Shown here: in pieces, positions 20 through 56,074 of the stretch
How the letters are laid out: every line of letters starts with the position of its first letter
Position numbering within the stretch: the stretch's first letter is position 1
From: Chiloscyllium plagiosum
Lineage: Eukaryota
DNA length: 64,000 nt
Direction of reading: 5' to 3'
Assembly (NCBI RefSeq): GCF_004010195.1
Contig: NC_057719.1
Location: 14,258,364-14,322,363 of the forward strand
Translations under genes and position numbers: made by a program
The notes under the pieces: model-generated
What the model saw: only the letters and a program-made list of their open reading frames with translations
The model's database searches: none
Told to the model about the DNA's origin: nothing

Positions 20-915
20 AGTGTTTATTTATTTGTTCGTGGGACATGAGTGTTGCAGCTGGACCAGCATATATTATCCATCCCTAATTATCCTGGAGAA
101 AGTAATGGTGAGCAGCTTTCTTGAACTGCGGCTGTCAATGGTTACAGGGACAACAACAATGCTGTCAGGAAAAGGGTCTCAGGATTTTTGCTCAGCGACA
201 ATGTTGGAACAGGGATATATGTGCCAATCCAGGAAGATGAGAACAAGCATAGTGGTCCCATACATCCGCTATACTTCATCTTTAAGGTGGTTGAGTTTGT
301 GGGTTTTTAGAACGTGCTTTCAAAAGTATCTTGGTCAGTTAGTCCAGTGCATCTTGCAAATGGTCAACACTATTCCCGTCATGTAGCGGTAGTGAAGGGA
401 ATTGGCTTTGAAGGTTGTGGAGGAATACAGATCAAGTGGGCTGCTCTGTCCTGGACAGTGTCAAACTCTTTGAGTGTTATTAGAGTGAACCCCATCCAAG
501 GAAAATGTGAGGACTGCAGATCCTGGAAAGCAGAATTGAGAGTGTGGTGCTGGAAAAGCACAGCCGGTCTGGCAGCATCCGAGGAACAGGAGATTTGACA
601 TTTCAGGCATAAGCTCATCATCAGGATGAAGGGTTCATGCTCAAAACGTCAATTCTCCTACTCCTCGGATGCTGCCAGACCTGTTGCGCTTTTCCAGAAT
701 CACACTCGCAACTCTGAACCCCATCCAGGTATCTGAATGGTATTTCATCACATACCTCTGTAGATGGTGGACAGGTATTGAGGTGATGAGATGTGAGTTA
801 TTTGCCACAGAAACCCTAGTCTCTGACACTCTTTTGTAACCATATTGTCAAAGTTCAGCTTCTGGTCAATGGTAACCTCTAGGATGTTGGTGATGGTGTG
901 TTCAGTGATGATAAC
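20..915 (-). mobile_element. Degenerate CR1/L2-type LINE 3' fragment, interrupted by a palindromic insertion
   Basis: Minus-strand residues LEVTIDQKLN...QRLGFL...LSTIY and LDTVQDRAAHLI (ORF2 C-terminus). 3' end shared with the Deu-SINE tails. Confidence 0.7.
499..714. mobile_element. Palindromic Penelope-terminal-repeat element (family A)
   Basis: About 85-bp inverted arms (539-621 / 625-707). TSD tgaaccccatcca at 486-498 and 715-727. Confidence 0.8.
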
Positions 916-1254
916 GTGATTGAACATCAAAGGAAATTAACAGAGATAAATTACTTTAAGGGTATAAAAAGAATGGAATTGATTTTTTGCACTAACCTGA
1001 CACAGTGACCAATAACATACAGCACTGACTTCAGAGTTCCATTTCAACCCATCATCTAAACTCCTAATCAGGTGAGATACTGGGATTGAAATTGGCTTTC
1101 AGCTATGGAATAAAATGGGTGGCCTTAAATTGGCAGCCTAGATTACATTACCATGGCTGAATTTTATTTCTTACTGAAGTGATAAGCATACTATTATTGA
1201 TTCTGTCCTCCTGCCAAAGAGCAGAGCCATCTTCACCACTAGCCCAATGGACTA

Positions 1255-1582
1255 AAGAATTAGAATTAGAATCCCAACAGTGTGGAAACAGGCCCTTTGG
1301 CCCAACAAGTCCACACCGAACCTCCAAAGAGTAACCCACCCAGACCCATTCCCCTACATTTACACCAGACTCATGCACCTAACCTACACATCCCTGAACA
1401 CTACGGGCAATTTAGCATGGCCAATTCACCTAACCTGCACATCTTTGGATTGTGGGAGGAAACCCACACAGACGCGGGGAGAATGTGCAAACTCCACACA
1501 GGCAGGCACCCAAGAGTGGGAATTAAACCCGGATCCCTGGTGCTGTGAGGCAGTAGTGCTAGCCACTGAGGCACTACGCCAC
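1255..1582 (-). mobile_element. HE1-type shark SINE
   Basis: tRNA-like head with A/B boxes, conserved body (tgtggagtttgcacattctcccc), CR1-like tail ending in (tctaat)n. Confidence 0.85.
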
Positions 1583-1716
1583 TCCTAAAGAAATTGGAAA
1601 TAAGAAAAAAAGAGTTTCAAATCATAGCAAACTGCAATGTGCAAATCATAGGAGATGTAACATAAACCATACAAACAGTTAGGCTGCAAAGGCTTGAATA
1701 TAATTAATGATCTTAC

Positions 1717-1845
1717 CTTCACAGCCTGTTCCATCAGTAGTAGTGGTGTAGCCCTGAGCACAGAGACAGTGATAAGATCCTCCTTCATTGTTTATGCATT
1801 CTCCATTTGGACCACAGATGTCTCTGGCCAAGCATTCATTAATAT
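1717..1845 (-). CDS. LTBP2: LTBP2 exon: cbEGF, duplicate of 6589-6714 (DINECLARDICGPNGECINNEGGSYHCLCAQGYTTTTDGTGCE)
   Basis: 129 nt, catAG/GTAAGA, phase 1-1, open frame, six Cys. Confidence 0.88.
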
Positions 1846-2399
1846 CTATGGAGCAGAGAACATACTGCAGGAAGTATGACACTAACAGTGGGCGCCCAGA
1901 AACAAAAGCAAGAAACATTGACCCTAAAACCAAATTAACTAGAATTGGGACTTTTAACCATCCCCATTAATTATCCTCTGTTCTGAAGAAGAACTCTGTC
2001 TTGTCCATCACAGATGCTGCCAGGCCTGCTGAATTTCTCCAGCTATTTCAGATCTTCAGCATCACAGTTTTGTTTTATTTCATCCAACTAACTTTTCACA
2101 GTTTTCCTCATTGTTTGGGTCAGCTGTTTATTAGAGCCAATTGCTTTGGTCCAAATCTTCATCTTCAGATAAGGAAGAAAGCAGCTAGCCCACACACCGG
2201 TGAAAGTTGTGTGTTTCTGTTTCCGAGTACAGAACGTTTCATGTGGACTTTACAAAATTTTGGATACACAAGAGCTCTTGCAAAGTCAGCAATATCATGA
2301 AAATCCAAAATCTTTGAGGAAACTCCTTACACTAAGTAGCCACAATCCAACTGTAGTAATAAGCTGAAACAATCCTTTCATATATATTTTTGAAACACT

Positions 2400-3085
2400 G
2401 GGATGTGAATGTTGTCCCAGTCATCTTTGTCTGTATGTATAGAAACTAGTGATAGCAGTTCATGTCTTTTGATGGCCAGTTGGTGTTCGTGTATCCTGGT
2501 GGCAAGTTTCCTGCTAATTTGTCTGATGTAGTGTTTTTTTACAGTTCTTGCATGGTATCTTGTAAATAACATTAGTTTTGCTGGTTGTATCTAATGGATC
2601 CTTTAGGTTCATTAATCGCTGTTTAAGTGTGTTGGTAGGTTTGTGGGCTACTATGATGCCAAGGGGCCTTAAAAAATCAGGACAGCTAAACAGGACAGAT
2701 TTCCAAAACATGAAACCAGATGGATCCAACACACCATGCTTCTATGGATTATCAAAAATACACAAAGCTAGTGCCCCACTCAGACCCATAGTGTCCCTAC
2801 CTGGACAAGCAAAATAAAGACTTGCATGAGAATTCTTAGAGACATGACATTCTAACCAGAGCTCCATCAAAAAATACATCAATTTAGGCCCCATCTACCT
2901 TCCCTTGAAAAAAGAACCAGAAATGAGATCACCCACCTTAAGAAACCAAGACCTATAAATAGAGAGGCAGGACATACCACCAGTGCTTCACCGGAGACTC
3001 GCACTGATAAAGTTACCTAGTATAGTGATGAAATATCTGAAAACAAACCTTCAAGGTCAGTGAGCTAACTTACATACGTATCAGT
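2400..3085. mobile_element. Rearranged Penelope-like retroelement fragment (GIY-YIG inverted, RT piece, 3' end)
   Basis: Minus 2400-2668 encodes IVAHKPTNTLKQRL...NVIYKIPCKNC...RKLATRIHEHQ. Plus 2668-2805 encodes TPCFYGLSKIHK...PLRPIVS. Plus 2802-3085 is the ORF end and terminal repeat. Confidence 0.85.
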
Positions 3086-3149
3086 AATCTTCCTAACTAC
3101 TTGCTACACATGCATGGCCACTGTCAATGACTAATGTGAATAGATGGGG

Positions 3150-4125: not shown

Positions 4126-4266
4126 TACTTTCCTGACCAGCCTTACTTCCACCCCCTCCACAAACTATGCCTTCAACTGCCCCCAAATTGAGTGGCAGTC
4201 CTCTCCACCACAACCCGGTCACTCTGGTTAATCCCAGTCAGGAAGCCAGTCACTTTCTCAACATGG

Positions 4267-4372
4267 CAGTTAAACAGGACAGACTTCCAAAACATGAAAC
4301 CAGATGGATCCAACACACCTCACTTCTATGGATTACCAAAAATACACAAACCTGGTGCCCCACTCAGACCCA
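4267..4372 (+). mobile_element. Isolated Penelope RT fragment
   Basis: QLNRTDFQNMKPDGSNTPHFYGLPKIHKPGAPLRP, near-identical to 2684-2788. Confidence 0.85.
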
Positions 4373-5824
4373 CAGACAATCGTTAAGGTGGTCAGATGCA
4401 ACCCCTAAATGGACATTCATTGACTATTTATTTACTGCTGAGTTGTGAAAGACTCCAGTGTACCTTTTTGTCCAGAAACTAATTGACAATGTGACAGGCA
4501 GTCTCCAGTAACTATCTGCCCAGTTATTTCTCCCTGCTGGGTATGGAAAGTTGTATTTGCGAGTTTCTAGGTATTTAACATTTTGCTGATTAGTTTTGAG
4601 TGAAATCTAGTTTACTGAACATTTCAAAATAATTCATGGACTATTGCTCTGGACTATCGTTCTGGAATTTTCTGACAGCAGAGGGGTAAAGTTTTACTTT
4701 GGCTGTTGGCTACATGCCCTTCTGATTGACACAGTGGAAGGGAAACAGGATGGACCTGCAATGAGCGAGTTATTCCCTATCATTCACTTTCCCCGCTGAA
4801 ATTGAATTTCACGTCTAGCCGATTTCACAAAGCGTGAAATATAAAAGACTTGTGCTCTTAACAAACTTGACTATTACTTCACAAACTCTCCATGACTTAA
4901 TTAGAGTAATGGCTAAAGTGGCTGAATTGAATAATTGACCGAACTGTCAAAATGTTCTGTTGATAACTAAATAATAACAAAACAAACTATTGCTATCCAG
5001 TAAGACAGATATTAAAAATAAGGAAGCTAATAAATGTGCTCTTACACTGTAACTGCTTGTGATTGGTAGTGAGTCTTTGTTAAAGTAAAGTCTTTAGAAA
5101 GACAAAGCTATTCCTGTGCAGGAGAGCTGAAGAATGGTTTCTCTTGGCAATAGCCAACCTGCATTACAAGCTTTGTGATTCACCAAAATACTGAATGCTA
5201 CATGAATGAAGACGACCCCTCACTAAATAACCTAATTTTTTCCACTGGGCATTATAATCCCAATCATGACCCTTGGGTGATGTTCCCCAATTCATCAGTA
5301 ATTTTTAAATTCTGATTTAATCTTAGTTTGATTTTGTTTTCAAATTGTGCTTATTTGCTTTAATCAGAATCTTAATTAAAACTATTTTATTAAGCCACAC
5401 TGAAACACCATAGGTGTTGGGTTCTTGATTATGGAGTGATTGAGATTTCAAAATAAGAATGTGATTTCATATTTGTTCAAATTTTCTGTGCCACATTTTA
5501 TGGAATTTCTGTAAAGCACAATGTCTACTCTATGGATAAAATTGACACCTTGCAAATGGGGTGCACTTTGGACTTTTTACTTTGGACTTTAAAAGGCATA
5601 TTATATCTTCTTGTCACTTTACTAACTTTCTTTACCTTAAATATGCTTAGGTCAAAAATTGCAATGAGTAAAACCTGGCCAACAATTTGACTCCTGGACT
5701 CTAACACATCAAACGTGAAAATATTAGCTGAAATATGCAATTTTTACAATGACAACATGCATATTGTAATTGAGAATAAAAATGAAATCTCATGCTTATT
5801 TTGAAATCTCAAATAGCCTTGTTA

Positions 5825-6588: not shown

Positions 6589-6714
6589 CTTGGCAGCCTG
6601 TACCATCAGGAGTAGTGGTGAAACCCCTGGCACAAATGCAGAAATAGGATCCTTCACTGTTAACACATTCTCCGTTTGGACCACAGACATCCTTGCTCAA
6701 GCATTCATTCATGT
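6589..6714 (-). CDS. LTBP2: LTBP2 exon: cbEGF (DMNECLSKDVCGPNGECVNSEGSYFCICARGFTTTPDGTGCQ)
   Basis: 126 nt, tatAG/GTAAGA, phase 1-1. Resembles recalled human [32 protein letters not shown] module. Not translated in the ORF track. Confidence 0.92.
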
Positions 6715-6813
6715 CTATAAAAGTATATTCATAGCAAAATTAGAAAAAAGATGGAAGACAGTAGAAAATAAACTCTCAACAATTCAATAGGAAATGCAAC
6801 AAATTAATTGAAT

Positions 6814-7133
6814 ACAAAAAACAGAAATTGCTGGAAAAGCTCACCAGGTCAGGCAGCATCTGTGGAGAGAAATCAGACTTAACATTTCAGGTCAAGTGAC
6901 CCTCCGAATGGTTCTGGGGAAGGGTCACTGCATTCGAAACATTGACTCTGAGAAATCAGAGCCAACGTTTCGAATGCAGTGACCCTTCCTCAGAACCATT
7001 CTGAGGAAGGGTCACTTGACCTGAAATGTTAAGTCTGATTTCTCTCCACAGGTGCTGCCAAATCAGCTGAGCTTTTCCAGCAATTTCTGTTTTTGGTTCC
7101 GATTTACGGCAACCGCAGTTCATTTCATTTCTT
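6814..7133. mobile_element. Compound palindromic Penelope-terminal-repeat element
   Basis: About 135-bp inverted arms centred on gaaa near 6952, each arm itself made of two opposed half-units. Approximate TSD aattaatt(g/a)a(a/g)ta. Confidence 0.8.
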
Positions 7134-7437
7134 AATTAATTAAGTATGTTGGAACAGCAGGATGTTTCTTACATGACGTTTTCCATTGCTTATTTTTATG
7201 TCACCATTTCACACACTTCCTTCTAGCTTTTTCTTGGTGCACCCCACCTCCCCGTGTCGTGCTTAATAATCATGATGTGGAGCAGTCTTGTTCAAATGTA
7301 ATTTTTCTATCAAAACCTCGCTTCCTCCACTGACTTATTATTCTGTGTTAATCACTTTCTTCAGTTGACCTGAATTTTTGTAATTATGGAGACAGACGCT
7401 CTCCCTGAAATTCTACTCTCTTTTCTATTGCAGTTGG

Positions 7438-7968
7438 GTGGCTGGAAGAATACAGCAAGCCAGGCAGCATCAGGAGGTGGAGAAGTCGACGTTCCAGGTG
7501 TAACCCTTCTTCAGGACCATGGGTGGGTATAGGGGGAGCTGTAGATAAAGGGGGGTGGGGAGGGGGGCGGAGCAGGGTGGTGAAGTGGGGCTAGGTGAAG
7601 ACAGGTAGAGAGTACGGCCTGGTTGGTCAATGGGAGGAATGAATCCGGTTGGTGGCAGGGAGGAGTGGAAGGGCAGGGGAGGGGCTGGGAAGGGAGTTGA
7701 GGGAAGAGAAGAAAGATTATTTGAAACTGGAGAACTCAATGTTGAGTCCTCCGGGCTGGGGCTGCCCAGGAGGAAGATAAGGTGTTGTTCCTCCAATTGC
7801 GGGGTGGTTCATTTTGGCAATGGAGGTGGCCAAGAATGGTCATGTTGGAAAGGGAGTGGTTGGGGAATTGAAATGAGCGGTGACTGGGAGGTCTGGTTGG
7901 CCCCTGCGGGCCCGGCTGCGATGCTCAGTGAGCCGTTCCCTAAGTTTACGTTCGGTCTTACCAACCTC
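7438..7968 (-). mobile_element. Penelope-like element 3' end (GIY-YIG C-terminus plus terminal repeat)
   Basis: VGKTERKLRERLTEHRS...PDLPVTAHFNSP and LEEQHLIFLLGS motifs, followed by the same terminal repeat seen in family A palindromes. Confidence 0.88.
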
Positions 7969-8039
7969 CATTTTAAAACGCTCCCTTTCCGACATGACCA
8001 TCCTTGGCCATCTTCCAATCTTTCTCTTACAGCTCTCTC

Positions 8040-8240: not shown

Positions 8241-8745
8241 CATAGACTCCCCACAGTGCAGAAAGAGGTTATTCAGCCCATCAAGTCTGCACTGATCTTT
8301 CGAAAACTATCTCCATCACCCTAGGAAGAAGTGGGTACTGCAGATGCTGGAGATAAAGTCAAGATTAGAGTGGTGCTGGAAAAGCACAGCAGATCAGGCA
8401 GCATCCAGAGCAGAAAAATTAACATTTCGGGCAAAAGCCCTTGATCATTGAATCCATTCCTATTAAAGGGATTTTGCCTGAAATGTCAATTTTCCTGCTC
8501 CTCAGATACTGCCTGACCTGCTGTGGTTTTCCAGCACCACTCCAATCCTGATACCCATCACCCTAACCAAACCACCCAGCCGGCACATGCCTGGACACTA
8601 CAGGATAATTTAGAAAGGACAATCCTGCACATCTTTAGACTGTGGGAAGAAACTGGAACACACGGAGGAAACCTATATAGACATGGGGAGAACTCCACCC
8701 AGACAGTTGCCCGAGGGCGGAATCGAACCCTGGTCCTGGGTCCTC
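8240..8745 (-). mobile_element. HE1-type SINE interrupted by palindromic element
   Basis: HE1 tail 8240-8323 and body 8555-8745. Confidence 0.7.
8324..8554. mobile_element. Palindromic Penelope-terminal-repeat element (family A)
   Basis: Inverted arms of about 85 bp. TSD ccatcacccta at 8313-8323 and 8555-8565. Confidence 0.8.
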
Positions 8746-9375
8746 TATGCCAATTCTTTTGCCAACCAGCCTGTAGGAGGATTTCCTGTAAAGTCTGAGG
8801 GAACCTCCAGAGGCCCTGAGGGTTGGGGGATGTGCAATGAGGGTAGCCTTCCCACAAAGTGTATCAATCCGATCTGTAGTGGAACCCTTTTGGCACGTGC
8901 CAGGGTGCTTTGGCAGCTGTGCGGGTCATAGTCCTGAATCTCGTTTGGAATCGGATTTGATTGCAGAACAACAATGCCCAGTCTTGGACAACAACAGCCC
9001 TCCAGCCAGTTTGTTGACCAGTGTGTTCAGACAAGCCCATCACTGACCTGCAGCAAGGAGTGTTGATTCTGAAAATTCTGATTTTGGAAGTAAGGGGTGC
9101 AACACTAATTGCCCGCCCCAAATTGCAGGAACAAATCAAGAGTTAAGTGTCTGGAACTACCTGTAGGTCAGACCAGATAAGGAGGACAGATAGCATTCTC
9201 TAAAGGGTACTAGCGACTCAGATATGTTTTTAACCACAGTGAGAGCTTTTTATTCCAGATTTACTAATGTCACAGCCTCATGTCCTTTAAATATTAACCT
9301 GGGGTTCTGGATTACTCGGCCACTAAGCCACTGTAAGATAATGCAATCAATTTCGCTGTGCTATGTACTGGGTCA

Positions 9376-10049
9376 AAGTTAAAAATCACACAATAACACC
9401 AGGTTATTGTCCAACAGGTTTATTTGGAAGCACTAGCTTTCAAGGCACCACCTACCACCAGTGGCACCCTTATACCATCCAAAATCAGAATTTTCAGAAT
9501 CAACACTCCTTGCTGCAGGTCAGTGGTGGGCTTGTCTGAACACACTGGTCAAAAGACTGGTTGAAGGGACAATTGTTGTCCAGGGCTGACCATCGTTGAT
9601 TAGATTACTTACAGTGTGGAAACAGGCCCTTCGGCCCAACAAGTCCACACCGACCTGCTGAAGTGCAGCCCACCCAGACCCATTCCCCTACACCTAACAC
9701 TATGGGCAATTTAGCACAGCCAATTCACCTGACCTGCACATTTTTTTGGATTGTGGGAGGAAACCGGAGCACCCGGAGGAAACCCACACAGACACGGGGA
9801 GAATGTGCAAACTCCACACAGTCAGTCGCCTGAGGTGGGCATTGAACCCGGGTCTCTGGCGCTGTAAGGCAGCAGTGCTAACCACTGTGCCACCGTGCTG
9901 CCCAATCTCAATCAAATCAGGACAACCACCTGATGAAGAAGCAGTACTCCGACAGATGGTGCCTCCAAATAAACCTGTTGGACTATAACCTGGCATTCTG
10001 CAATTTTTGACTTTGTCCACCTCAGTTCAACACCGGCACCTCCAAATTC
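9376..10049. mobile_element. Palindromic element (family B) with captured sequence and nested HE1 SINE
   Basis: Arms aaaaatcacac...caccaggttat.gtccaacaggtttatttggaagcac and its reverse complement. TSD tg(t/c)actgggtca at 9364-9375 and 10050-10061. Confidence 0.78.
9597..9903 (-). mobile_element. HE1-type SINE
   Basis: Full head-body-tail, low divergence from other copies. Confidence 0.9.
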
Positions 10050-10830: not shown

Positions 10831-12203
10831 TTTGCAAGAGGTGTAGCTATGTTTTGGGGATCCAGTTGCCTCATGCATGTCTTCATGGTCTGGTTGGCTG
10901 CTGCCATGGAGGTCTATGCTCAGCATCTCAAGAGTTTCTGGGAGAGATGCACGTTCCTGCATTCCATTGCCTCTGCCATAAGCCCCAGGCATACAGGCAA
11001 GGAGTCTGAGAAACAGGTACATACCCCAGGAACCTTTTCCAAAGGAGGAGACATGGCCAAGCCAGGTGGAATGCAGCTGATTGACAAACCAAATCCAGGC
11101 CCCACAGAAGTTTCTCTCAGGACAATCCAAAAGTGCCCCGACCCCATCTCTGACTCTCTTCAAGCTGAGGAGGTCTATTTGCCTCTGGCAAGAAGACCCT
11201 CAGCATGTAAGGGCCATCTGGATACAAGCACCCACTGTGGTCACTTGGCCAATCATCCAGCGCCTAGAGAGTCCTCCATCCTAGCTATGGTTCCTGAGAC
11301 TACATGAAGATGCAGCCAGAGAGAAATGATCTTCAGAAAGTGAAAAGATCTTTAGAAAACACTTTGGTGGCTTGGGTGATAGGGCACTGTACACGAACTA
11401 AATTTGATTGGTGTTGTTTGAATTTCTGAGTAGCCGCAGATGTCACTGTGATAGCATGTGCCTGACTTGTTTGGGAAGGGGATCAAGAGTTACAAGGAGA
11501 ATGGGGTTGAGAAACCCCATTCAGCTACGATGGAATGGCAGAGCAGACTTCATGGGCTGAATGGCCTAATTTTGCTCCTGTATCGAATGGTCTTTCATAT
11601 GGTCCTATGATCTGATAACACTATGGTAACTTTACCTTTACAGAGAAACATATCATTGAATGTGCCATGGGTTGATATGTTGAGAATTTGCTGGCCCATG
11701 TTGAAATAGGGTGAACAAGGCAGACACAGTGCAATGGGTTATTGTAATAGTTAACTCTGTAAACAAATGTACTCGGACTTCTCCCAAGAAAACTAAGGCT
11801 CTTGGTGAAACAGATATTGAAAGTCTATTAATAACTAACAGAATACTAATATGACATCTCAGACATGTTACTGTTACATTACATAGATTGTTGACTAGCT
11901 AACTGACTAACTGGATGACTATCTATTTGAGCAGCAATCAGACTGACTGTGCAAAGAGTAAGATGGAGTTCTAGTGCCTTTCTGAGATTTGTGCAACCAC
12001 ACAAAAACATTTATATCCAACAAACACCTCAAGTGACAATCACTTCAGAAATGCTATTATTTTCTCTGGTTTCTTTACACAAATGCTGAGTTTTTCCAGC
12101 CATTTCTGTTTTTGTTTCTTATTTCCAGCATCCACAGTTCTTTCGGTTTTTCATTATCTTCTCTGTTTGGTTTTGACTATAGTGACTATCAATAAAAAAA
12201 CTG

Positions 12204-15495: not shown

Positions 15496-15496
15496 T

Positions 15497-20918: not shown

Positions 20919-20927
20919 AGAAATGTA

Positions 20928-21145: not shown

Positions 21146-22859
21146 TATATTGTTTCCCTTATTGACTCATGTCACAAGATATTTGAGCCTCATTTATTTA
21201 ATTGTGATATAGGATAAGAGGGAAAAGTGCATGAAGGTGTGTGTGTGTGCCTATAAGGGGAACAGTGAAAACTATGTATGGTCCATACTGTAGGGTATCT
21301 AATCTAATCTGGATCAACTCACTGGCAATAACAGGCGATTATTCCAGGTTGCAAGTTCAGTGTAAGTACCTTCAAAATACTCTCAATGGCAGTTCCTTGA
21401 CCCTTACTGTTCTCCTGGATTAGAAGAGATCAGGTAATGAAATGACCCCTGAACATCGATACATTTTAATGATATCCTCAAGGCCTGCTCCACAGCTGGG
21501 GCACCTCTGTATTCACAACTTTCCTCTTCCACCAATAAGTAGAATGTCCTATTCTAAGACATTACTTTCTTTAAGGTCCATACCATTTTTAAGGTTCACA
21601 CATTTCTGGAGGACTATGTTATAGAGCACACAGTGGACCGCCATAATGAGAGAGACCCTCACAGGCTGACTAGTCCAGGCAATACGACCGGATCTTCAGA
21701 GGTCTGATGGCTTTCCAGATCATGGTCCTTGCAGCTACCTTCAGTCTTGATCCCTAATAAAGGTGCAAGTCCTGATACTTTGAGTATGATACCTTGCCTG
21801 CTAGAATCCAGCAGCGCAGTTAGATGTTGGAATGAAGAGCTGCCAGAGGATGAAGAAGCAGCTGCCAAGACAATGCAGACAAGCATGAAGTTTTTGTTGT
21901 AGTTACAGGGCAGTTAATTGTGGGGGGAATGAAAGTTCTTCTAGTTGATAAATGTCTCTTGGTGGCCAATGGGTGCCTTGATGATGACATGAATGAAACT
22001 GATGACATCTTGAAAGTGGAAGAATCCAGCAATGGTGACCCAACTACTGCTTTTTGCGCCTGCAACCCATATCTGACTGGAATTGAATATCGTCCTGATC
22101 TTGCAAATTCAGCATCACTGAGTATGATATACAAGATTATATTACCTTCTAGTCCCTTGCCTCTCTCCCCAGTCCTCACCCTTGCATACAGGAAGAACTC
22201 AATTGAATGGCTCCACCTCTCCTGCTGACATTACTTTTCATCATTTCTGCATCTAGAATGTGAAATGCCAGCTATTACCTTGCTTGCATTCATCTGGACT
22301 CTATTACATTCAATTCATTTATGCCTCAGGTGGGTGAAAACACCCTGCACTTCCTATACACATGTAGACCATTCTGCAGTTCCTGCATAGCCAATGCATC
22401 TGTGTGTCAACGGCACAGCACTCCTCTCAGGTATGTTCCTTTAATGGACTCACTCAAACTGATATTATGGTCAGAACTAACTCCCTGCTGCATTACAATA
22501 GTTTACCATCATAGGTCTGGACAGCACTGGACTGATCTTGCAATCCCAAACTATTCCTGAACAAGCTCCTTCATTAATTCATTTCCCTCATTGCAGATTT
22601 CAAGGCCTGCATTCCTTTCCGTCCTGATGAAATTTGCTTGTGGCAGTCATGGTGCTGGGAAATCAGCACACTGCCTGGCAGTACTATTTACAACGTCTCT
22701 ACCTCCCACAATATATAAATCATGAACTACAGCATTGTACTTGCTAAGTACTTACAGATGAAGAATAATTCAATGTTAAATTTAGAACGATTCTGTATTC
22801 TGTTCATTTTTTACACCAAGTCATGTCTCTTCTCTATCACAGGTTGTGCATTTGCTATG

Positions 22860-24269: not shown

Positions 24270-24455
24270 TAGACAGGCAGAAGGCTGGAAGAACACAGCA
24301 AGCCAAGCAGCATTAGAAGGTGGAGAAGTTGATGTTTCAGGTGTAACTCTTCTTCAGGACTTCCTTCACCTCCTGATGCTGCCTGACTTGCTGTGCTCTT
24401 CCAGCCTCCTGACTGTCTATGTTGGATTCAAGCATCTGCAGGTTTTTTTGGTTAT
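24270..24455. mobile_element. Palindromic Penelope-terminal-repeat element (family A variant)
   Basis: Inverted arms agacaggcagaaggctggaagaacacagcaag / cttgctgtgctcttccagcctcctgactgtct. Approximate TSD aa(g/a)cct(c/g)tacag. Confidence 0.75.
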
Positions 24456-24944
24456 AAACCTGTACAGGCAGTCATGTGGTTGCAAATAGGATCTGTTCTG
24501 GAGTCTCTCACAAGTGAATTTGTTTGCAAGTCGGAGTACATTTCAGGAAAGCGTAAGTACAGAAGAATATTTATTTTTTGGGTCTTTAAATTTTAAAACT
24601 ATGTATGAGATCACATTTTGTAAGTATGAACATTTGTATGTCAGATGTTTGTAAATTGGTGAGCCCGCTGTACATCCTCCACTACACATGCACAATGGCA
24701 GCCAATATGTACCTTCCATTAGATGCAGCACAACAAGATGCCAAAGTTGTTGTGACAGATCCTTCCAAACCTCTGATCTCTACCTGACTTGAAGAATAGA
24801 ACAGCAAATGGATGTAAAAACCATCCTGACATGGTACTGTATCATCATGTCTTCACTGTTGTTGGATCAAAATCATGAAACACCTCCCCCCACCAACCAC
24901 ACCCGCCCCCCCCCCCCCCCCCCCCTCAACACACACACAGACAC

Positions 24945-28701: not shown

Positions 28702-28871
28702 CAGGAGAGGTGGTACTGCAGATGCTGAAGATTAGAGTCAAGATTAGAATGGTGCTGGAAAAGCACAGCCGAGGAGCAGGAATCCTGATGAAGGGCTTTT
28801 GCCCGATACGTCGATTTTCCTGCTCCTTGGATGCTGCCTGACCTGCTGTGCTTTTCCAGCACCACTCTAAT
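28702..28871. mobile_element. Palindromic Penelope-terminal-repeat element (family A)
   Basis: Inverted arms. TSD catagcctac(a/g)aag at 28688-28701 and 28872-28885. Confidence 0.82.
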
Positions 28872-35694: not shown

Positions 35695-37745
35695 GTTATG
35701 CTGGAACAGTGTAAAAGTGGTCACACCACAGCTGGAGTACTGTGTGCAGTTCTGGAATCCACAATTTAGGAAGAATGTGATTGCACTGCAGAAGAGATTT
35801 ACCAGATGGTTGCCTGGGCTGAACAGTTTAAGATACTAAGAGAGTGTAGATCGCTTGGCGTCATTTCCCTTGGAGCAGAGGAGATGGAGGGAGGACATGA
35901 CTAAGAAGTATAAAATTATGAGACTGGGTAGACAGGAAGGAATTTTCCGCTTGGTGGAGAGATCACTGACCAGGCCATAGTTTTCAGAAAAGGAACAGGA
36001 AGTTTATAGGGAACATGAGGGATAACAATGTTCACGCAGTGGGTGGTGAGAATCTGGAACTCACTGCCTATAAAGGTGGTTGAGGTAAAAACCCTTATAA
36101 CATTTAAGAAGCATTCAGATGGACACTTGAAATGCTGAGATATACAACACTAGGGGCTAAATGCTGGAAAATGGGTTAAGAATAGTTAAGTAGTTATTTC
36201 TGACTGGTGCAGATTTGATAGACTGAAAGATCCTTTACTGTGCTACAGACCTCTGTGACTCTGCATCATTTTCTCTAATAAACTTTTAGGAATGAGTGAC
36301 CACAATATGATAGAATTTTACATGTTGAAAGTAAGGGTACTTCTATCTGAAGAAAGGTGTTAAATGTGAATAAGAGAAAATGATGAAAACATTATGGACA
36401 AATTGGCTGGATTGGGAAAGTACGTTAAAAGGCATCTCTGTACACAGGCAATGGATAGTCCTTAAAGAATGATTACACGATTTACTACAACTATACATTC
36501 TTTCAAGATGCAAAACCACAAAATAAAGTTCAAGTCAACCATGGCTGACAAAGGAAGTTAAGAATTACACCACATTGAAAAACAAACGCTAGAAATGGTA
36601 ATAAATCTGAGGACTGAGATTTTTGTTTTTTCAGAATGCAGCCAAAATGGCCCCAGAAACTGATAAGGAAAGGAAAAGCTGAATGTGAATACAACCTCTC
36701 AAAAGAAAGTAAAAAAATCACACAACACCAGGTTATAGTCCAACGGGTTTATTTGGAAGCACTAGCCTTTGGAACAACCACCTGATGAAGGAGCGGTGCT
36801 CTAAAAGCTAGTGCTTCCAAATAAACCTGTTGGACTATAACCTGGTGTTGCGTGATTTTTCACTTTGTACACCGCAGTTCAACATCGGCTCCTCCAAATC
36901 ATGCCAAAAGAAAAACACTCAAACCTGAAAAAAGGAAACATTTACGTAAGACAGATGTGGATCCATTTCAGTTCGTCAGGAGAATTTGCACCGGGGAATT
37001 GAGAAATGGTAGAGCAGTTGAATTAATTAATTTGCAACTGTTTTCACTGAGGAAGATGCAAGAAATCTCCCAGAATCAGGGATTCAAGTAACTAGGAGTG
37101 AAGGAACTTAGTATTTGTAAGAAGGATGTACTGGAGAAATGATGGAGATGAAACTTGATAAATCAGAATGTTGGAGGTGGCTACAGAAATAATTGATGCA
37201 TTGGTGATTATCTTTCAAAATACCATAGAATTTGGAATAATTCTTGCAGATTTGAAGCTAACAGATGACACTTCATTATTTCAGACAGGAAGAAGAGAGA
37301 AAACAGGGAACTATAAACCTGTCAGCCTTACATCAGTAACAGCTAAAATGCTAGCAGTTATCATCTTGATAAATGGACCTTTGGATTAAAAAAATGATCT
37401 CATTGGGCATAATAAGCATACATTTGCAAATGGAAAATCTTGATAGAAAAGGTAGACACAGGAAAGATGTTTTCTCTGTTTAGGGAGTCTAAAACAAAGG
37501 TGCACAATTTAAAATTAAAGGGTGGGAGTTGCCACTTAGAAATTACGTGGGGGTTAAGATTTTTGGAATTCAAAAGGGCTGTGTAAATTCAATTTTGAGC
37601 ATATTAGAGTAGAAATTGGTAGATTTCTATTTTCAGTAGTCTAAAGCATTATAGGGATAGTGCGGGTTAGAGAAATTGAAGTATTTGATTAGTCATATTA
37701 AATAATGGAGCAGGCTAAATGCGCTACTCCTGGTTCTATATTTCT
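35695..37745 (+). mobile_element. Cluster of degenerate CR1 LINE fragments
   Basis: PQLEYCVQFW, SDHNMIEF, PWLTKEV, GNYKPVSLTSV motifs. Confidence 0.8.
36709..36904. mobile_element. Palindromic element (family B)
   Basis: Arms aaaaatcacacaacaccaggttatagtccaac.ggtttatttggaagcactagc and reverse complement. Flanking caaaagaaa repeat. Confidence 0.82.
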
Positions 37746-42398: not shown

Positions 42399-42547
42399 AT
42401 GAAAGAGAATGTGAGAAAAAGAGATCTGAAAATATAAAATCTTGAATGAAAAAGGGGTGTAAATAAAAAAAATGCTTGATCTCAAAAAATATAGGGAAAT
42501 TAGGCAACATGTGTTGGATAGAGAAAAGCTTACAATGAGTTTAAAAG

Positions 42548-43005
42548 GGTGGCACTGGAAAAGCATAGCAGGTCAGGAAGCATCTGATGAGCAGGAGTGT
42601 CAACATTTCAGGCATAAGCCCTCCATCAGGAATATGGAAGGGGCAAGGGGCTAAGAGATAAATGGAGTTGGGTGCAGGGCTGGGGGATGTTGATGCTGTG
42701 TGGTTGAAGGGTCCCAAGGTAGAAGACACGGTGTTCTTCCTCCAGTTGTCAGGTAGTTTTGATTTGGGGGTGGAAGAGGCCCAGGACTTGCATGTCCTTG
42801 GAGGAGTGGCAGAGGGAGTTGAAATGGTTGGCTATAGGGCGATGGGGTTGTTGAGTGCTTGTGTCCCAGAGATGTTCCCTGAAATGCTCTGCGAGTTGGT
42901 GTCCTGTCTTCCTGATGGAGAGGAGACCACATCAAGAGCAACGGTAGATAAGATGGATGGATGTGCAGGAAAGTCTCTGCTGAATGTGAAAAGATCCTCT
43001 GGGGC
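42548..43005 (-). mobile_element. Penelope-like element 3' fragment
   Basis: Degenerate GIY-YIG (LYI.KTGHQLAEHFREHL...HFNS.CHS...LEEEH.VF.LGTLQP) plus family A terminal repeat. Confidence 0.8.
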
Positions 43006-43379
43006 CTACCATAGCTTACAAAAACGTACAGTATATAAACAAGAGTCAGTAGTTTGGAGGATGCACCAGATTCCATTAAAGGACTTGAGTTAACTAAAAA
43101 TCTATGCTTAGTGCATACTTTACTGAAGGTGAAGTCAAAAGATACTTCATCATATTTGAAAAGGTATCTGTGCATTTTGCTGAAACGTTTTAATAACTAC
43201 ATCCATAATTGCATGCAAATTTCATGAACCCATGAAAAAGTAGTTCTAAAGATTTATGAGCTTATTCCTGAAAATTATCAATTAAAACTCTGAATTACAA
43301 GGAAGAAAACTAATCAGATATTTGTAGAATTTTCAAAAGAAAAATAAATTCTATAGGATCATTGTTTTTATAGTTATGA

Positions 43380-44200: not shown

Positions 44201-45573
44201 TCTAACTGATCAAGTTAGAGAAACATGTTGAGAACAGAAGGGAAATCATGTTTCTGGAAGAATTGAGAATTAGTGTTCCTGAATACGTGAAAGCTTAGTT
44301 AAATAAGCATCCAGCATTAAAGATCTGTAAAGCAGACACTCTGTTAGATACTGATGATATCTCAAATAGGTAGTTACAGGTGGGGTGACAGTCATATGGA
44401 AATCTATAAGGAAATCAGAGGAATAGAAAATCTGCCCAGATGGAAGAAGCATTTGTTTCAGGAACAAAAAGATGTTTGCCCAAGTTATGAAGGAGATTGG
44501 GCAGAACCGAAAAGTGACATGAAGTAAATAATATGCATCCGTTGTCTAAGACAGGTCACACCAAAGCCAACTGATGCAGGTTAAATCAGAGCAGTACTAG
44601 AAATGTCTAAGGAATCATCAGGAAAGAAAAGTGTTAAAACTGTAGCAGTGAGATTACACACATGGAATATCCTGCAGAACTTGGCCACATCCTTACGCAA
44701 TTCCAGCCAAAAAAAACATTTTAGTATGTTAGCTTGTGTTTTTTAATACCGCAGTAACCTAGCATTTTATGAGCCCTTCATGAAATACGAGTACTTAGCT
44801 AGACCTAGAACCTGATTGAACACTACTCATCCTCATTGGCTGGATTTACATGTTGTTATCAATGAGTATGGCTGCTGAATCCCTTTTTAGATTTTCTTCC
44901 AACATTTCCACTAAGAGAAATGTCATTCCTAACGGTAAAGTGCCGTAGTCCCATTAGGGACAACTGGTGGTGAGTTGAATCTGAGGGTGACCATGCCTCA
45001 AACTAGCAGTGAAGTTGAGAAGGCACCATGTTCATGGTAATCTCAGCTGGTACAGGAAATGAACCAAGCTGCTGGTATTACTTCACACTGCAAACCAGCT
45101 GACCAGCCAACTGAACTAACTGACCCCCCTTATTTAACACCTCACGAAGAGTAAGCGCCTCTATCGCTAATGTACTTTTTCCGACCCATTGATCTTTTTA
45201 GCTTTTCAAGTTCAAGGGCAGCATTCATTTTTCTGATCAGAAAAATTCCAAAATAAAGCAAATAATTGTGGATGCTGGAGATCTGAAATAAAACAGAAAT
45301 TGCTGAAGAAATTCAGCAGGTCAGGCAGCATTTGTAGAGAGAGAGTAGAGTTAGCTTTTTGAGTCTGCTGACTGTTTGTTAGAAACTGTTAGCTGTTAGG
45401 AGAAAGTGGTATTTATGCTGAAGGTGAGGTTGGAGGTGCTGGGGGACAGGTGAGCGGATTGATGGAGATGGAGCCTAAAGAGAGATGTGAAGGGGTTAGG
45501 CAAATGAGGCAATTATTGATAGGCCACGAAAGCTGAATAAGGAGGAGAAAAAAAAGCTTGGGGTGGAGGAACC

Positions 45574-45856: not shown

Positions 45857-46768
45857 GATTTACAGTGGGCATTGTGTGCAATGTAGTACTGACTTAAAGA
45901 ATGAAGATATGGAGAGTTAAAGTGTGCAGTGTGGTGGTTCCACTAAGACTAGGGCGAGAGAATGGGGTTCTATGTAAGAGGGAGTGCCAGCTGTGCCAGC
46001 TACATATCATGTGTACAGTGGCTGTGCTATGATGGTGCCTGTGAGGGGCATCATCAGATTGTTAATAAATGTCAGGATGCATAGCTTCCTTTCAGTAGAT
46101 ATTCATTGAACTGGTGAGTGGTCCTGGGAATGTCATGTTGTAAGATGACACCGTGATTGGGCATAGGGGTGCCCTGGGGCAGGGCGCTTACTTCATGCAG
46201 TGAGGTTGGGTAAGTTACAAGAGGCCTCACAGTGAAGCGTCCTCCAAAAATAACTCAAGCAACTTGAAATTAACCAAAAGAAAACAGAAGGTTCAATCCT
46301 TTAATTATGCCAACAACCCTCAGAAACCACACTCAGAAGCCAATTTTACTGATGGTACCAGCTGGCAGCAGTGTAGCTTTGATTGCAAAGTCTAAATTAT
46401 CAATATAAATATAGAACAACAATGGGCCTATCAGTGATCATTGGGGGATCCTACAAAACCATCCACTTTGAATTGTTAGTCTCTGCCCCTCCTGCCTGCT
46501 TTCTTATTTGCAACAGCTTAGCTGTCCATTCTGCTAGTTGTCCTCAGTTCAGTATTTTCATTCCTCATTCATTAAGCTTTTACAAGGTGCTTTCCAGAGA
46601 TTTGCTTTGGAAATGTAGATGCATTACATCTTCCACCCTTGTGGAATCTCTCTCTGCCATCTCTTCAATTAATTCCTTGTAGCTCATCAAGCTGAAATTT
46701 CTCTCTTGAACACCAAGGTGACTATTCATTATAATATTGTTCCTTTACAGCTGCTATTCTATTTCTTG

Positions 46769-46920
46769 ATTTGGAGATGTCGGTGTTGGACTGGGGTGTA
46801 CAAAGTTAAAAATCACACCTACAATCTTAGACTCCACAACCACCTGATGAAGGCGCTCCGAAAGCTAGTGCTTCTCAATAAACCCGTTGGACCGTAACCT
46901 GGTGTTGTGTGATTTTTAAC
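46769..46920. mobile_element. Family B element with short inverted arm and intact hammerhead-like core
   Basis: TSD attctatttc(t/c)tg at 46756-46768 and 46921-46933. Confidence 0.8.
46841..46870 (+). ncRNA. Minimal type I hammerhead ribozyme-like motif
   Basis: cac-CTGATGA-a-gg(cgct)cc-GAAA-GC-TA-gtg: all core nucleotides present, stem I cac/gtg, stem II shortened to 2 bp. Activity unknown. Confidence 0.5.
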
Positions 46921-48635: not shown

Positions 48636-48766
48636 AGGCAAAAGTGAGGACAGCAGATGCTGGTGATTAGAGTCAAGAGTGTGGGGCTGGAAAAGCACAG
48701 GTCAGGGGGATTCTCCTGCTCCTCAGATGCTGCCTGACCTGCTGTGCTTTTCCTGCAACACATGCT
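48636..48766. mobile_element. Palindromic element (family A), centre deleted
   Basis: Arms ggaaaagcacag / ctgtgcttttcc. TSD tgacaaaaa(a)gcac at 48623-48635 and 48767-48780. Confidence 0.75.
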
Positions 48767-51280: not shown

Positions 51281-51409
51281 CTTGGCAGGTCTGTTTGTCT
51301 TCTAAGATAGCTAATGTATAGCCAGAATAGCAGGAACAGGAGTATGTGCCCGCTGTATTGGTACAATGGCCTTTTCCTTCACATGGGTCTCCTTCACACT
51401 CATTTATAT
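51281..51409 (-). CDS. LTBP2: LTBP2 exon: cbEGF ([43 protein letters not shown])
   Basis: 129 nt, gaAG/GTTAGT, phase 1-1. The DPCxGKGxC...YSCxCYxGYTLA...QxCQ pattern matches the recalled human LTBP2 module DDNECLRDPCKGKGRC. Not translated in the ORF track. Confidence 0.92.
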
Positions 51410-52724
51410 CTTCAGATCCAAATTATAAGATACCAATGGCAAGTGGATTCAACATAGAAAAAGAGAATAAAGTCATGGACGATGAATATACAACACTGTC
51501 ATTTTGTTAGCAATGCTCATTTGGTTACCGTTTCATTACCTAAACATCAAACCTCCCAGTTCTCTCAATGAGTATCCATCAGCAAATAACTTCTTTTTCA
51601 GGTGCTGAGCATTTTCAATATTTTCTGTTCTTATTGTTTCTGCTTTTCTATATTGTTTTCATGCAACCAATTAACAATCAGAATCTTCACCATTGCAACA
51701 GTTGTAGAAATGTGAAGTGCATATGTAAACATTAACAGATTTAATTAAACTATTTACAAGACATGGAAAGGGTGGACGCATTGTTGCAGTCTTACCATCC
51801 ATCTGCAAACCCACTGACAGAGACTCAGTGATGCTCACACTTTCTGTTGTCCGAGGAAAGCAGCCAACATAATCAAATACCCCTCCCAACTCGGTTATAC
51901 TCTCGTCCACCTCCTTACATCATGCAGAAGATACAAACATTTGAAAACATTGATTGATTGAAATTTGTAGAAGATTGACAGCAATAGATTTGGTTGGGTT
52001 AGGTAATCAAGGGTTATTAAGTAAGTGTGGGTAAATGAAATGGAAGCATGTATCAGTTAGGCTTTTTCATCAGCAATAATCCTGAGGGGCTGGATAATCC
52101 TATATTTACAATTCAAATACAAGCCGTCTTGCATATCAACCTGAGGACTGACGTATGATAATCAAAACATTTTCAAGATATAGTCATGTTCATTTTTCTC
52201 TTCCTTTCTGATTATTCAAGGCCTTGGTCATTTCTTCCAAGCAAAATTATGTACATCTTTCAGTTTAATACACTGCATTCCCTGCTCCTGATCTGGTCTA
52301 CTCTACACTGATGTAACCAAATGCAATTGTATGATTGTCTTACCGGACACTTCCTTTCAGTCTGCATGTTTAACCGTGAGCTTTTGGTCACTTACCTGTT
52401 TAATACTCTGCATTGCTCATCATCTTTCTCCCTGTCTGCAGATACTTACTCTGTTCTAACTCCAAGCCAACAGAATTCAGCTTTTGATGAGGCAGTCTGC
52501 AACCTTTCAGACCAAAGTCAAGACAAATAACTGATATTCCCACTTTTTTGCAGACGATTGTAATGACTCATCCATTTACTTGATCTGGTCCTGGTTTTCA
52601 CCCCAACACAAATCTTTCTTTTCATTCTTTGCTCCCTTAACCCATTTATCCTCCATTTGCTTGCTTGAAATCTTCTGTAGCTGTAACCATTTCGAAAAAA
52701 GAAATCTGGTAAATCTAAAACTGG

Positions 52725-53339
52725 CTGGACCTCACAGGATATCAGTTCCCTGATTGGGGCTGTTAATCTGGTCCAATCAGGGAGCCCCATCTGACAGATA
52801 AAAAGGGAAGTGTCTCCGCGGTTATGTTAGAGCCCGGGTGTCCTTGGAGAAGGAGCACGCGGTGTCCACCAACACCCTGGAGTTGTTCAGGGAGAGGTGG
52901 GCGCCGCAGGGAGTGGAGTGCATCATTTCTCCCTCCAACTCTATTTTGTTTTAGTCCCTACCCTCCCCCTCACTGTTTTGATCACACAGCACTGTCCTTT
53001 GATGTGAAGGGCAGTGTTTGTCACTGGCCACCCGGGTGTTTTCCTATCTTCCTGGTGGTGGAATTTGAATAAAGATTTGTGCACTTTGTGTCTTTCACTG
53101 TGTCTCACACGTATACACACACAAAATAAAATAATAAAAAAAAATAAACCGGGGATTCCTGGTGGTGGACTTAAAGAAAAAGAAAAAAAAAAGAAAAAAA
53201 AAGAAAAAAAAGGGAAGTGTCAGTGATTCTGGAACTCTGGTAGCTGACTCTGAAGAGGCAGTATTAAAGTCAAGGGTTGTTCGTGTGTAAATAAAGGGTG
53301 AGTTGATAAGGAGATACTGACCGCTGTGGAGTTACTTCA
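52725..53339 (+). mobile_element. Probable solo LTR interrupted by a LINE
   Basis: CCAAT boxes, gataaaaa TATA-like site, AATAAA near 53290, ends ttca. Confidence 0.5.
52815..53206 (+). mobile_element. Young 5'-truncated Tx1/L1-clade LINE
   Basis: ORF2 end RGYVRARVSLEKEHAVSTNTLELFRERWAPQGVECIISPSNSILF*, 3' UTR, A-rich tail. 15-bp TSD aaaaagggaagtgtc at 52800-52814 and 53207-53221. Confidence 0.88.
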
Positions 53340-53534
53340 ATCTGAAATGTTAACTATTTTTCTCTTAGTTGGCACATATTGAGAAGATCTTCTATTATCC
53401 TTCACATTTGCCATTCTGCCACATTATGTATCTTCACTCAATAATATATTTAGATACCAAATTGATTACCTTTATCTGAAGGAATTAGTTACAAAATGAC
53501 AATAGTAAGAAGAGATTTTCTACATTGATTTTAC

Positions 53535-53660
53535 CTATGCAGTCGATGCCTTGTTGGTTCAGCACAAAACCAATTGAACAAACACATCGATAGCTTCCCA
53601 CTGTATTTTCACATCGTCCATAGCTACAAAACTGTGGGATTTGCCAGCATTCATCAATAT
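53535..53660 (-). CDS. LTBP2: LTBP2 exon: cbEGF (DIDECWQIPQFCSYGRCENTVGSYRCVCSIGFVLNQQGIDCI)
   Basis: 126 nt, acAG/GTAAAA, phase 1-1, full cbEGF consensus. Confidence 0.9.
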
Positions 53661-55850
53661 CTGTCAATCAAAATAATTAATTTCAGAAATAATTACAAAT
53701 TATGGTAGCTTAAGAAAATAACATGAAAGTTATATAGAGCCACACTTGCATAATGAGTTTGAGTTTGATTTATTGTTGTTACGTATTGAGATAGAGTGAA
53801 AAGTGTTGTTTTGCCAGCTATACAGGCAGATCATACCATACATAGTGTATCAGGGTAGCAGAACAAAGTGCAGAATACAGTGTTACAGCTGCAGAGAAGG
53901 TAAGAGAGAGAGAGATCAGAATTAACAATTGAGAAGTCCATTCAAAAATCTGGTAACTGTGGGGAAGAAGCTGTTCTTGAATCTGTTTGTACAGTTTTTC
54001 AAACTTTTATATAAATGTTCCCTTCCTATGTAAAGTTTGTAAATAGCAAGGCAGTATCAAACTGGAAACTTGCGAAGACTTTACAGGAGTAATTCTAATT
54101 GCAGTTAACAACTTGGAATTTTCTTTACTTGTATGACACAGGCTAAAGCTTGGTCAAAATGAAAACACTTTTCTTCTCTCTGTGTATTTCCTAACAATCC
54201 TAAAGTCACTATTTAACTTAGGCAGTTTGCTTAAATAGCAGTGAGTATAATGCATAAACATACCCAAATATATCTTTTAATTACTCAGTGAGATACTTAA
54301 AACTATATAGTGTAGAAAATGGCAAAACCAATGCTGTTGTAGTGGGTATTTTTCCGTGTTTTGAAGAATGAGATATTGATAACACAGTGATTAATATGTA
54401 TCTAATTAATGTTATGCTAGGAGTAGGTAGCATTGGAAGTAAAAGAAAGAAAATAATTATATCTCAGAACAATTACAAAACAATGCTTATGTTGAAAAAA
54501 CAACCTCTGAAATGAGTTTAAGATGAGACATGGTTTATGATTATCTAGATATAAATGATTAATTAACCAATTCTGATGAAAAAAGCCAATCAACCTGAAG
54601 TGAAGGCAAAATTTCCATGATTTTCCTCACACTATCGGCAGGAAACATTCACATAAATCTGTAACACAGCCCAGAAGCAGCATAAATCTCTCAATATTTC
54701 ATGACAATTTTACTCAATTTCTATACCCACTTGTTATTTTTTCTAATTACAAGAAAATCCGCAGTCCATTATCTGATAAAAAAAGAAAAAAAATCCTGGC
54801 AAGGTATAAAGTCAGAATCACATAGAGGCATTTAATTAATATTGTTGGATTCTCAATGCAATGGATTTTCTAATAAAAAATACTCAAACACTGATAGCAT
54901 TAATAAGCTCTCCATGAGAGATACAATGTACTAAAACAATAATTCATTGTTGTACAAATATATCCATTAAAAGCCTTCAGAATGAGTGATGACACACCTG
55001 CAAACTGCCATCATCCATGTGAAGCATACAGTAACAGACTTTTCATAAAATAATTCACTTAGTGCTTTTACCCTCTGCAACTCATCACCTTTCAAAAACA
55101 ACTACGGCATGAGAGAAATCTATAACTTCTGCTTCTTTAAGAGAAGGAGACAGATTAAAAAAAAACAAGTTAAATCCATTCCAGATCTCCCATTTATACT
55201 GAATAGGTGTTATAACCTTTCTCACAGTAAATACTCTTGCTGTTAATGTGAGTGAACATTGAATACCTGATTTAGTTGAATTGTAAGTGCATGCTTCTGA
55301 AGCCACTAAGTTGCCACGTACAAATTATACAAGCTGGGAGAAACAGCAGTAAGAGAGAATAATGATTGCATAGGCAAAGTGTCAAGGAGGATGGTGGCCA
55401 TAGTATATGCCAGGGAGTTTAGTGTGAAGCCGCACCTGAATGAGGCCTTGCACCTGGTCTGATTTATATGTTGGGAATTTGTGCCATCCAGTTGCTTGGG
55501 GAAGGAGAGGAGAGTTGGAATTGGTATGAAAATAAAACACATTGAGGTTTTAATAAGGTGAAAATATATTAAAATAAGGAATTCGCCACTCCATGGCAAA
55601 GATTTGGAAGTCATGATTTAAAGCTTGAAAGGAAATTTGCAAGCAAGAACAACATTTTAGGCGTCACAAATATGTTGTTACATTCTCTCTTGGATTTTGA
55701 AAACTTTCTGGCCCCTGCTCGTGCCATGCCAGGGAGGGGAAAGCACCCCCCAGTTCAAACCTTTGTTTCGTCCACTGGTGAGGAATAAAGCAACCTGTTG
55801 CTATAGTTTTCATACTATCAAACAAATCAGGATTGCAACCTTATTTCTTG

Positions 55851-56074
55851 ATCTGGAGTCGCCGGTGTTGGTCTGGGGTATACAAAATTAAAAATCACAC
55901 AACACCAGGTTATAGCCCAACAGGTTTATTTGGAAGCACTAGCTTTTGGAGCGCTGCTCCTTCATCAGGTAACTCCTTCACAGTTACCTGATAAAGACGC
56001 AATGCTCTGAAAGCTACTGCTTCCAAATAAACCTATTGGACTATAACCTGGTGTTGTAAGATTTTTAACTTTGT
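55851..56074. mobile_element. Palindromic element (family B)
   Basis: About 90-bp inverted arms around a 9-10 nt loop. Approximate TSD caacc..ttt.cttg. Confidence 0.82.

Follow-up and report, generated by a model that had tools for sequence, protein, structure and literature searches.

Minimal type I hammerhead ribozymes (min-HHRs) were described in the pseudo-long terminal repeats (pLTRs) of metazoan Penelope-like elements (PLEs) by Cervera & de la Pena (2014; PMC4209133). In the sections of the PLE literature on which we draw here and below, insertions with an inverted pLTR, an optional 31-bp tail and a target-site duplication (TSD) of 9-10 bp are reported (PMC3846280), the inverted repeats of Penelope vary in size per copy (PMC2377424), and the origin of tandem and inverted Penelope insertions is named as unresolved (PMC8557442). 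For PAc, a Poseidon element of the anole, both target strands were cut and extended in vitro, two internal start sites of the reverse transcriptase (RT) bound the tail, a dimer was predicted, and the protein-assisted hammerhead was dispensable for insertion (Frangieh et al. 2024; PMC11167929). Here we analyse 64,000 nucleotides of the Chiloscyllium plagiosum genome (contig NC_057719.1, positions 14,258,364 to 14,322,363; the window, with positions counted from its first letter), together with contigs of public sequencing runs, protein searches and the literature. The window holds loci that combine inverted arms, a tail on one side, TSDs, variable centres and a hammerhead motif with CpG-type decay, and the family A ends among them also close a GIY-YIG open reading frame (ORF). 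These palindromes are Penelope-type ends joined head-to-head at differing points, and we consider it likely that they are heavily 5'-truncated, dead-on-arrival insertions built anew each time by the Penelope RT/GIY-YIG machinery.

Element ends joined head-to-head at differing centres

Ten loci, named here by approximate start, had been described in the original prediction as short palindromic insertions with a one-sided tail. All ten consist of element ends paired head-to-head, and all ten carry a tail of roughly 30-39 nt on a single arm. The description fails at two of them, the double fold-back of 6814 and the 9376 locus, which is not short. The simple palindromes (499, 8324, 24270, 28702, 36709, 46769, 48636 and 55851) span 130-231 bp. 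Ordered otherwise than by position, their tail and tailless arms measure 124/92, 131/100, 127/97, 78(+15)/92, 95/94, 70/60, 131/65 and 50/102 nt. What had been called family A resolves into three subfamilies (A; A3 at 7438 and 24270; A2 at 6814). Direct repeats do flank the loci, over 9-15 bp where 9-14 bp had been given: TSDs are clear at seven loci and weak or degenerate at 6814, 24270 and 55851. With the rough ends of the original prediction, 7/10 loci reached a TSD score of at least 9, as did 9/300 random pairs; with ends re-set by eye after inspection the scores were 13, 12, 12, 11, 11, 10, 9, 9, 8 and 8, and 45/3000 random pairs scored 8 or more.

The centres differ in all eight simple palindromes. 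Three are symmetric or nearly so (499, 8324, 55851), while in 24270, 28702, 46769 and 48636 each arm holds sequence that the other lacks; in 24270 and 28702 the junction lies on a stem I microhomology. For family B, two public DNA runs were compared with one arm of the 36709 locus, on simplified contigs from which rare forms are dropped and in which centres upstream of 36772 are invisible. This gave 39 joints, of which 15 were shown; 12 of the 15 switch strand, each at a different place and each in one to three of the ~53,000 contigs per run. Loose ends upstream of 36774 continue into further element sequence and have no mirror arm. No head-to-tail tandem occurs among the window copies, and one joint that goes back 127 nt was seen in one contig per run. 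The same ends also stand in single orientation, at the close of ORF fragments (7438, 42548) and as solo stubs. Since the centres differ from copy to copy, the palindromes were likely built anew per insertion, rather than forming a new self-spreading class. The amplifying palindromic non-autonomous class of the original prediction finds no support in the 8/8 window palindromes or 12/12 shown B joints: the comparison of junctions that it had itself proposed has been made, and every centre is unique, the outcome it had named as speaking against a replicating unit.

Several loci show further structure. At 6815-7132 the inner pair of arms has common changes that the outer arms lack, which suggests that the locus was duplicated twice or drew on two templates. 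A 120-bp stretch (8969-9088) recurs in inverted orientation about 400 bp away, in the centre of the 9376 palindrome (9478-9598); this copy may be a later insert or, instead, reflect capture of a local template at the junction. The sequence right after the B tail starts with CAAGAAA or CAAAAGAAA in three of four copies (46756-46768, 55836-55850, 36905-36913), possibly through a target preference or a microhomology of the tail end. Four solo stubs akin to A2 (45290-45359, 17731-17791, 12080-12124 and 2009-2049) each have a tail-like end, and a recognisable hammerhead is absent from all four.

Hammerhead motifs and their link to Penelope coding sequence

With no more than one mismatch allowed in the core, a strict descriptor of the minimal type I hammerhead has six matches in the window (60 dinucleotide shuffles: mean 0.03, maximum 1). 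Rfam reported no hammerhead family there up to E 1, which is uninformative because the motif lacks stem III. The motifs stand where the original prediction had placed them; that of family C has G8 mutated and an AUAU stub. The family majorities carry the CUGANGA, GAAA and UH core, one extra base before stem II and G10.1-C11.1. The proposed family B consensus is the majority reading in ~52,000-53,000 public contigs per run, and by the majority letters of ~53,000 contigs per run its core is intact. As had been proposed, a palindromic tetramer (15.1-16.1) replaces stem III: ACGU in A, A2 and A3 (4/11 arms, the remaining 7/11 reading CpG-type TG or CA) and AGCU in B (4/5 arms), with AUAU in C. Stems I and II also vary between families yet stay paired, at stem I position 3 (A-U in A, G-C in A2 and A3, C-G in B) and stem II position 4 (C-G in A, U-A in A2 and A3, G-C in B), over few independent families. 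Within the five B arms there were no compensatory pairs and RNAalifold gave a non-hammerhead fold; minimum-free-energy folds of monomers mispair the core. The fit to the published consensus (PMC4209133) and the GIY-YIG ORF that family A ends uphold, at the level of sequence, the original reading that these are minimal type I hammerhead cores of the Penelope type, in which stem III is reduced to a palindromic stub.

Most individual copies are decayed. All core bases are kept in just five of the 18 arms that have a hammerhead region, and two of these five also keep the palindromic stub, one with stem II down to 2 bp and the other with G-U-rich stems. In the 46769 palindrome every core base is retained and stem II has only 2 bp. 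Many core lesions are of the CpG type. It had been proposed that either strand supplies a core; this applies to three of the eight simple palindromes (499, 8324 and 55851, with a hammerhead region on both arms) and not to the other five, four of which have it on a single arm and one (48636) on neither. In the predicted folds of 499, 36709 and 55851 the motif is buried in the arm-arm duplex. Because the cores lie on opposite strands, no transcript of a simple palindrome contains more than one of them in sense orientation, and none can form the cis dimer. In a public RNA run (X21), more than 2,000 reads cross the predicted cut site with no pile-up of ends, in a library of a type that would miss short cleaved products.

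The copies of A and A3 with attached coding sequence we take to be Neptune-like, from a linker Cys motif and the description in PMC8557442. The stretch 42707-43015 matches an RT/GIY-YIG protein, P0001 (62%, E 6e-36), and the one protein found for the 42548 fragment is from Chiloscyllium punctatum (64% identity). Among four full-length relatives, GIY-YIG was found in 4/4 and RVT_1 in 3/4, most scores being under the Pfam cut-offs. The 7438 fragment matches the same protein set; a query with the unbroken frame of 42548 was blank, and Pfam missed the decayed fragments. Of the two GIY-YIG fragments said to end in the family A repeat, 42548 does so and 7438 carries the A3 repeat instead. By these matches, the end repeats of A and A3 follow an ORF with RT and C-terminal GIY-YIG. 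At the 5' end of the 7438 element, a 38-nt endonuclease coding copy is inverted (7824-7861 and 7976-8013), and this inversion junction lies within the ORF.

Family C, presumably Poseidon-like by its motifs, has the predicted core at 3002-3039; it is a single copy that ends a 700-bp rearranged ORF fragment, and not a short palindrome. Its RT piece matches PLE proteins weakly (E 6.5e-5); a separate homolog search with that piece was blank, as was Pfam on family C. Within 2350-3050, the plus-strand endonuclease piece takes up the sequence at the point where the minus-strand piece leaves off; the 140-bp RT piece that separates the two derives from far upstream. The arrangement resembles a twin-priming inversion. 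A second copy of this RT piece, 92% alike, stands by itself at 4267-4375.

Family B was followed in the public contigs, where it extends at least 26 nt further upstream in three variants. It has two 3' ends about 33-38 nt apart: tailless arms end at ~36863-36868 and tail arms at ~36899-36903, the first end being marked by contig depth and by 1,139 loose ends with varied A/T-rich flanks. This anatomy (two 3' ends, inverted arms, tail, TSDs) points to a Penelope-type element. Family B patterns had 0 matches in metagenome, prokaryote-genome and viral contigs, and P0001 had no related locus in metagenome contigs; as none of these collections is shark DNA, this says little. Family B also carries a poly(A) signal, AATAAA, changed into ATTAAA in a common variant; ATTAAA is also a poly(A) signal. 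In X21, whose species label is that of run X1 and which may not be of the window species, 704 reads run into poly(A) after 36837 and 958 reads after 36840, 12-15 nt past AATAAA. With three A in the following 20 nt, the reference speaks against internal priming. The reads stem from other copies (most less than 90% alike), and they may include duplicates or derive from few genes. Family B ends may supply poly(A) sites to transcripts. Because the poly(A) sites precede both 3' ends, these RNAs are without the tail and are not the insertion template.

Origin of the palindromes and competing explanations

A scheme that would account for these structures starts with staggered nicks, 9-15 bp apart, made by the endonuclease. 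Both target ends would then prime cDNA on the 3' region of the element RNA, one cDNA starting where the tail ends and the other ~37 nt upstream, where the end repeat ends; these priming points would correspond to the pair of internal start sites that the anole element uses in vitro (PMC11167929). Both cDNAs would stop early, near the hammerhead, and their ends would be joined, sometimes via stem I microhomology. The hammerhead itself would merely be carried along from the end repeat of the parent; any activity it has would be as a dimer in tandem transcripts of the parent, not in the stubs.

The family B joints bear on the two-ended priming. The 12 offsets between the arm starts, within 36772-36834, are 32, 37, 37, 37, 37, 38, 38, 38, 42, 46, 47 and 49 nt. 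Seven of the 12 are thus 37-38 nt, at positions that shift across 14 nt (post hoc P ~0.001-0.002 relative to uniformly spread offsets), in joints that were pre-selected by the tool and given without the tail side. This offset is close to the length of the B tail (~33-38 nt). An offset equal to the tail length means arms of equal length, as in 24270 and 28702, where the arms are nearly equal (94/95 and 93/92 nt) and the offsets are 27-37 and 34-38 nt, respectively, all depending on how the shared bases are assigned. Stem I microhomology was considered as the sole cause of the 37-38-nt offset and rejected: only one of the 12 joints lies exactly on the antidiagonal, and two more within 2 nt. We offer the tentative conjecture, which could well be wrong, that a PLE RT dimer, primed at both nicks and at the two internal start sites, makes two copies of one RNA end in parallel, giving equal cDNAs whose starts are offset by the tail length. 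Six of the eight window palindromes do not fit such lock-step priming. If true, it would explain why head-to-head Penelope insertions have a tail on one arm only.

Some observations weigh against construction at each insertion as we propose it. Later deletions at the centre could have scattered the junctions (one arm of 28702 has lost 15 nt), and the joints are 15 of 39 from simplified contigs that lose rare forms and leave centres upstream of 36772 unseen. For the three of eight palindromes with symmetric centres, self-priming by fold-back fits equally well. In addition, none of 151 PLE proteins compared with the window gave a coding match near any B copy; without an attached ORF, the template of family B may be non-autonomous.

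Self-priming as proposed in PMC3846280, by which a single cDNA folds back and primes the second arm, seems to us rather unlikely; asymmetric copies would then come from later deletion. It finds a natural place for the symmetric centres of 499, 8324 and 55851, for the tail arm of 36709, which is longer at both ends, and for the junctions of 24270 and 28702 on the self-complementary stem I. However, the tailless arm reaches further upstream than the tail arm in four of the eight simple palindromes, and such mutually non-nested arms exclude plain snap-back of one cDNA unless a deletion followed. Moreover, the sliding 37-38-nt offset is common to 7/12 B joints and is not bound to one microhomology.

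That family B spreads as a linear non-autonomous RNA from a Penelope end repeat (SINE-like, that is, like a short interspersed element, or a retrozyme monomer), with its own poly(A) site and mobilised in trans, is an unlikely reading, and one that can be held together with the preferred one, as the palindromes would still be made per insertion. The missing coding match and the poly(A) reads of X21 agree with it, and non-autonomous elements derived from end repeats have been described (bioRxiv 10.64898/2026.07.22.740005). However, all four B copies are short, so that an ORF is not expected in the window; three variants run on upstream by at least 26 nt; the polyadenylated, tailless RNAs cannot be the template; and no tandem B copies occur in the window.

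A very improbable account is that of an ORF-less hairpin retroposon class that amplifies with fixed centres, later blurred by deletions; we regard it as already largely refuted. Family B is indeed very numerous (~53,000 contigs per run), TSDs are present, and deletions near the centre do occur (28702, 46769). Yet no centre is shared by any of the eight window copies or 12 shown joints, no joint exceeds three contigs per run, the element continues past 36774 with no mirror arm, the cores are predicted to be buried in long duplex, and 48636 is without any hammerhead. Finally, most copies lie between exons of a gene with calcium-binding epidermal growth factor (EGF) domains, but the idea that the host keeps them as working ribozymes or hairpins within introns can be set aside as having next to no likelihood, 13/18 arms having lost core bases, many by CpG-type changes, and none keeping the core with both consensus stems.

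This gene, which we take to be fibrillin- or LTBP-like, is on the minus strand and covers most of the window (~1.8 kb to 53.7 kb), with calcium-binding EGF exons at ~1735-1860, 6590-6720, 14803, 33122, 37965 and 53661; the first two of these, near 1.8 kb and 6.7 kb, resemble each other. Opposite to it, on the plus strand, 21854-22228 is an open frame of 124 codons with protein-like composition and no Pfam match. On the minus strand, 50379-50460 matches an Rfam tRNA (38 bits) with a long variable arm, and may be either a gene or the head of a SINE.

Table 1. Penelope-type copies and motifs located in the window
Feature	Position	Strand	Remarks
Family C, presumably Penelope/Poseidon-like	2350..3050		Inverted endonuclease piece, RT piece, endonuclease C-terminus and end repeat; six-frame reading
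min-HHR relic, family C	3002..3039	+	G8 mutated, AUAU palindrome
Family A palindrome	500..715		Near-symmetric centre, tail on left arm, 13-bp TSD
Subfamily A2 double fold-back	6815..7132		Four hammerhead regions, tail on right, degenerate TSD
5'-truncated copy, presumably Neptune-like	7430..8013	-	GIY-YIG fragment; A3 end repeat, its min-HHR having C3 at 7514; 5' end with 38-nt inverted piece
Family A palindrome	8324..8554		Near-symmetric centre, 11-bp TSD, both cores mutated
Family B palindrome, split	9376..10049		Two later inserts (~9450-9605; SINE-like repeat ~9605-9905), 12-bp TSD
Subfamily A3 palindrome	24270..24458		Arms 94 + 95 nt, stem I microhomology at junction, weak TSD
Family A palindrome	28702..28871		Arms 78 (+15 deleted) + 92 nt, stem I junction, 14-bp TSD
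min-HHR	28781-28816		In 28702 palindrome (family A); GATA instead of GAAA
Family B palindrome	36709..36904		Tail on right arm, 9-bp TSD
min-HHR	36779-36813		In 36709 palindrome (family B); G12 mutated
AATAAA	36820-36825		Family B, in 36709 palindrome
5'-truncated copy, presumably Neptune-like	42546..43015	-	GIY-YIG coding fragment 42707-43015, then family A end repeat with min-HHR relic
Family B palindrome	46769..46920		Tail arm 50 nt, tailless arm 102 nt
Family A palindrome without hammerhead on either arm	48637..48766
Family B palindrome	55851..56074		Symmetric centre, each arm with a mutated hammerhead region, degenerate TSD

Relation to described elements

The class is already known: min-HHRs in Penelope end repeats and inverted, tailed insertions have both been published, and the present loci mainly add shark families. 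Our literature search, mainly of open papers and without Repbase, found none on palindromes of shark PLEs or on a fixed offset between arms, from which absence from print does not follow. The value of the material is that of a dataset, as junction geometry can be counted directly over the tens of thousands of copies of family B. If the tail-length offset holds genome-wide, it would tie the two RT start sites found in vitro and the predicted dimer to the inverted structure; the poly(A) signal of family B could, in turn, let stubs end host transcripts.

The min-HHRs of PMC4209133 resemble the motif of the window in CUGANGA, the extra base, G10.1-C11.1, GAAA, palindromic positions 15.2-16.2, UH and a short stem I. 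Its alignment contains both ACGU and AGCU stubs, as found here in the A group and in B; it reports many unrelated consensus families per genome, mostly as single truncated copies, and some min-HHR pairs 100-700 bp apart on opposite strands, as here; and its turtle and frog entries have AAUAAA after the motif, like family B. It differs in that its listed alignment holds no shark and does not tabulate palindrome junctions.

The insertion unit of endonuclease-containing (EN+) PLEs (PMC3846280, PMC8557442, PMC2377424) is likewise 5'-truncated, with inverted ends, a one-sided tail of 30-40 bp and a TSD. The loci of A, A2, A3 and B have this anatomy: inversion and tail in 10/10, and a TSD that is clear in seven and degenerate in three. 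In contrast to those units, the ORF-less extreme is the commonest form here (10 palindromes in 64 kb), and the papers propose self-priming where we propose two-ended priming with a fixed offset. PAc is alike in that no RNA ends at the cut site; it differs in that the inverted arms are left unexplained in PMC11167929 and that family A is Neptune-like, not Poseidon. The non-LTR (long terminal repeat) retrozymes of animals (PMC7229834, bioRxiv 10.64898/2026.07.22.740005) share with these loci the want of an ORF, a type I hammerhead and kinship to PLE pLTRs. Retrozymes, however, are head-to-tail tandem units with circular RNA, whereas the loci described here are head-to-head, dispersed and tailed; their centres vary, and their minimal cores are for the most part broken.

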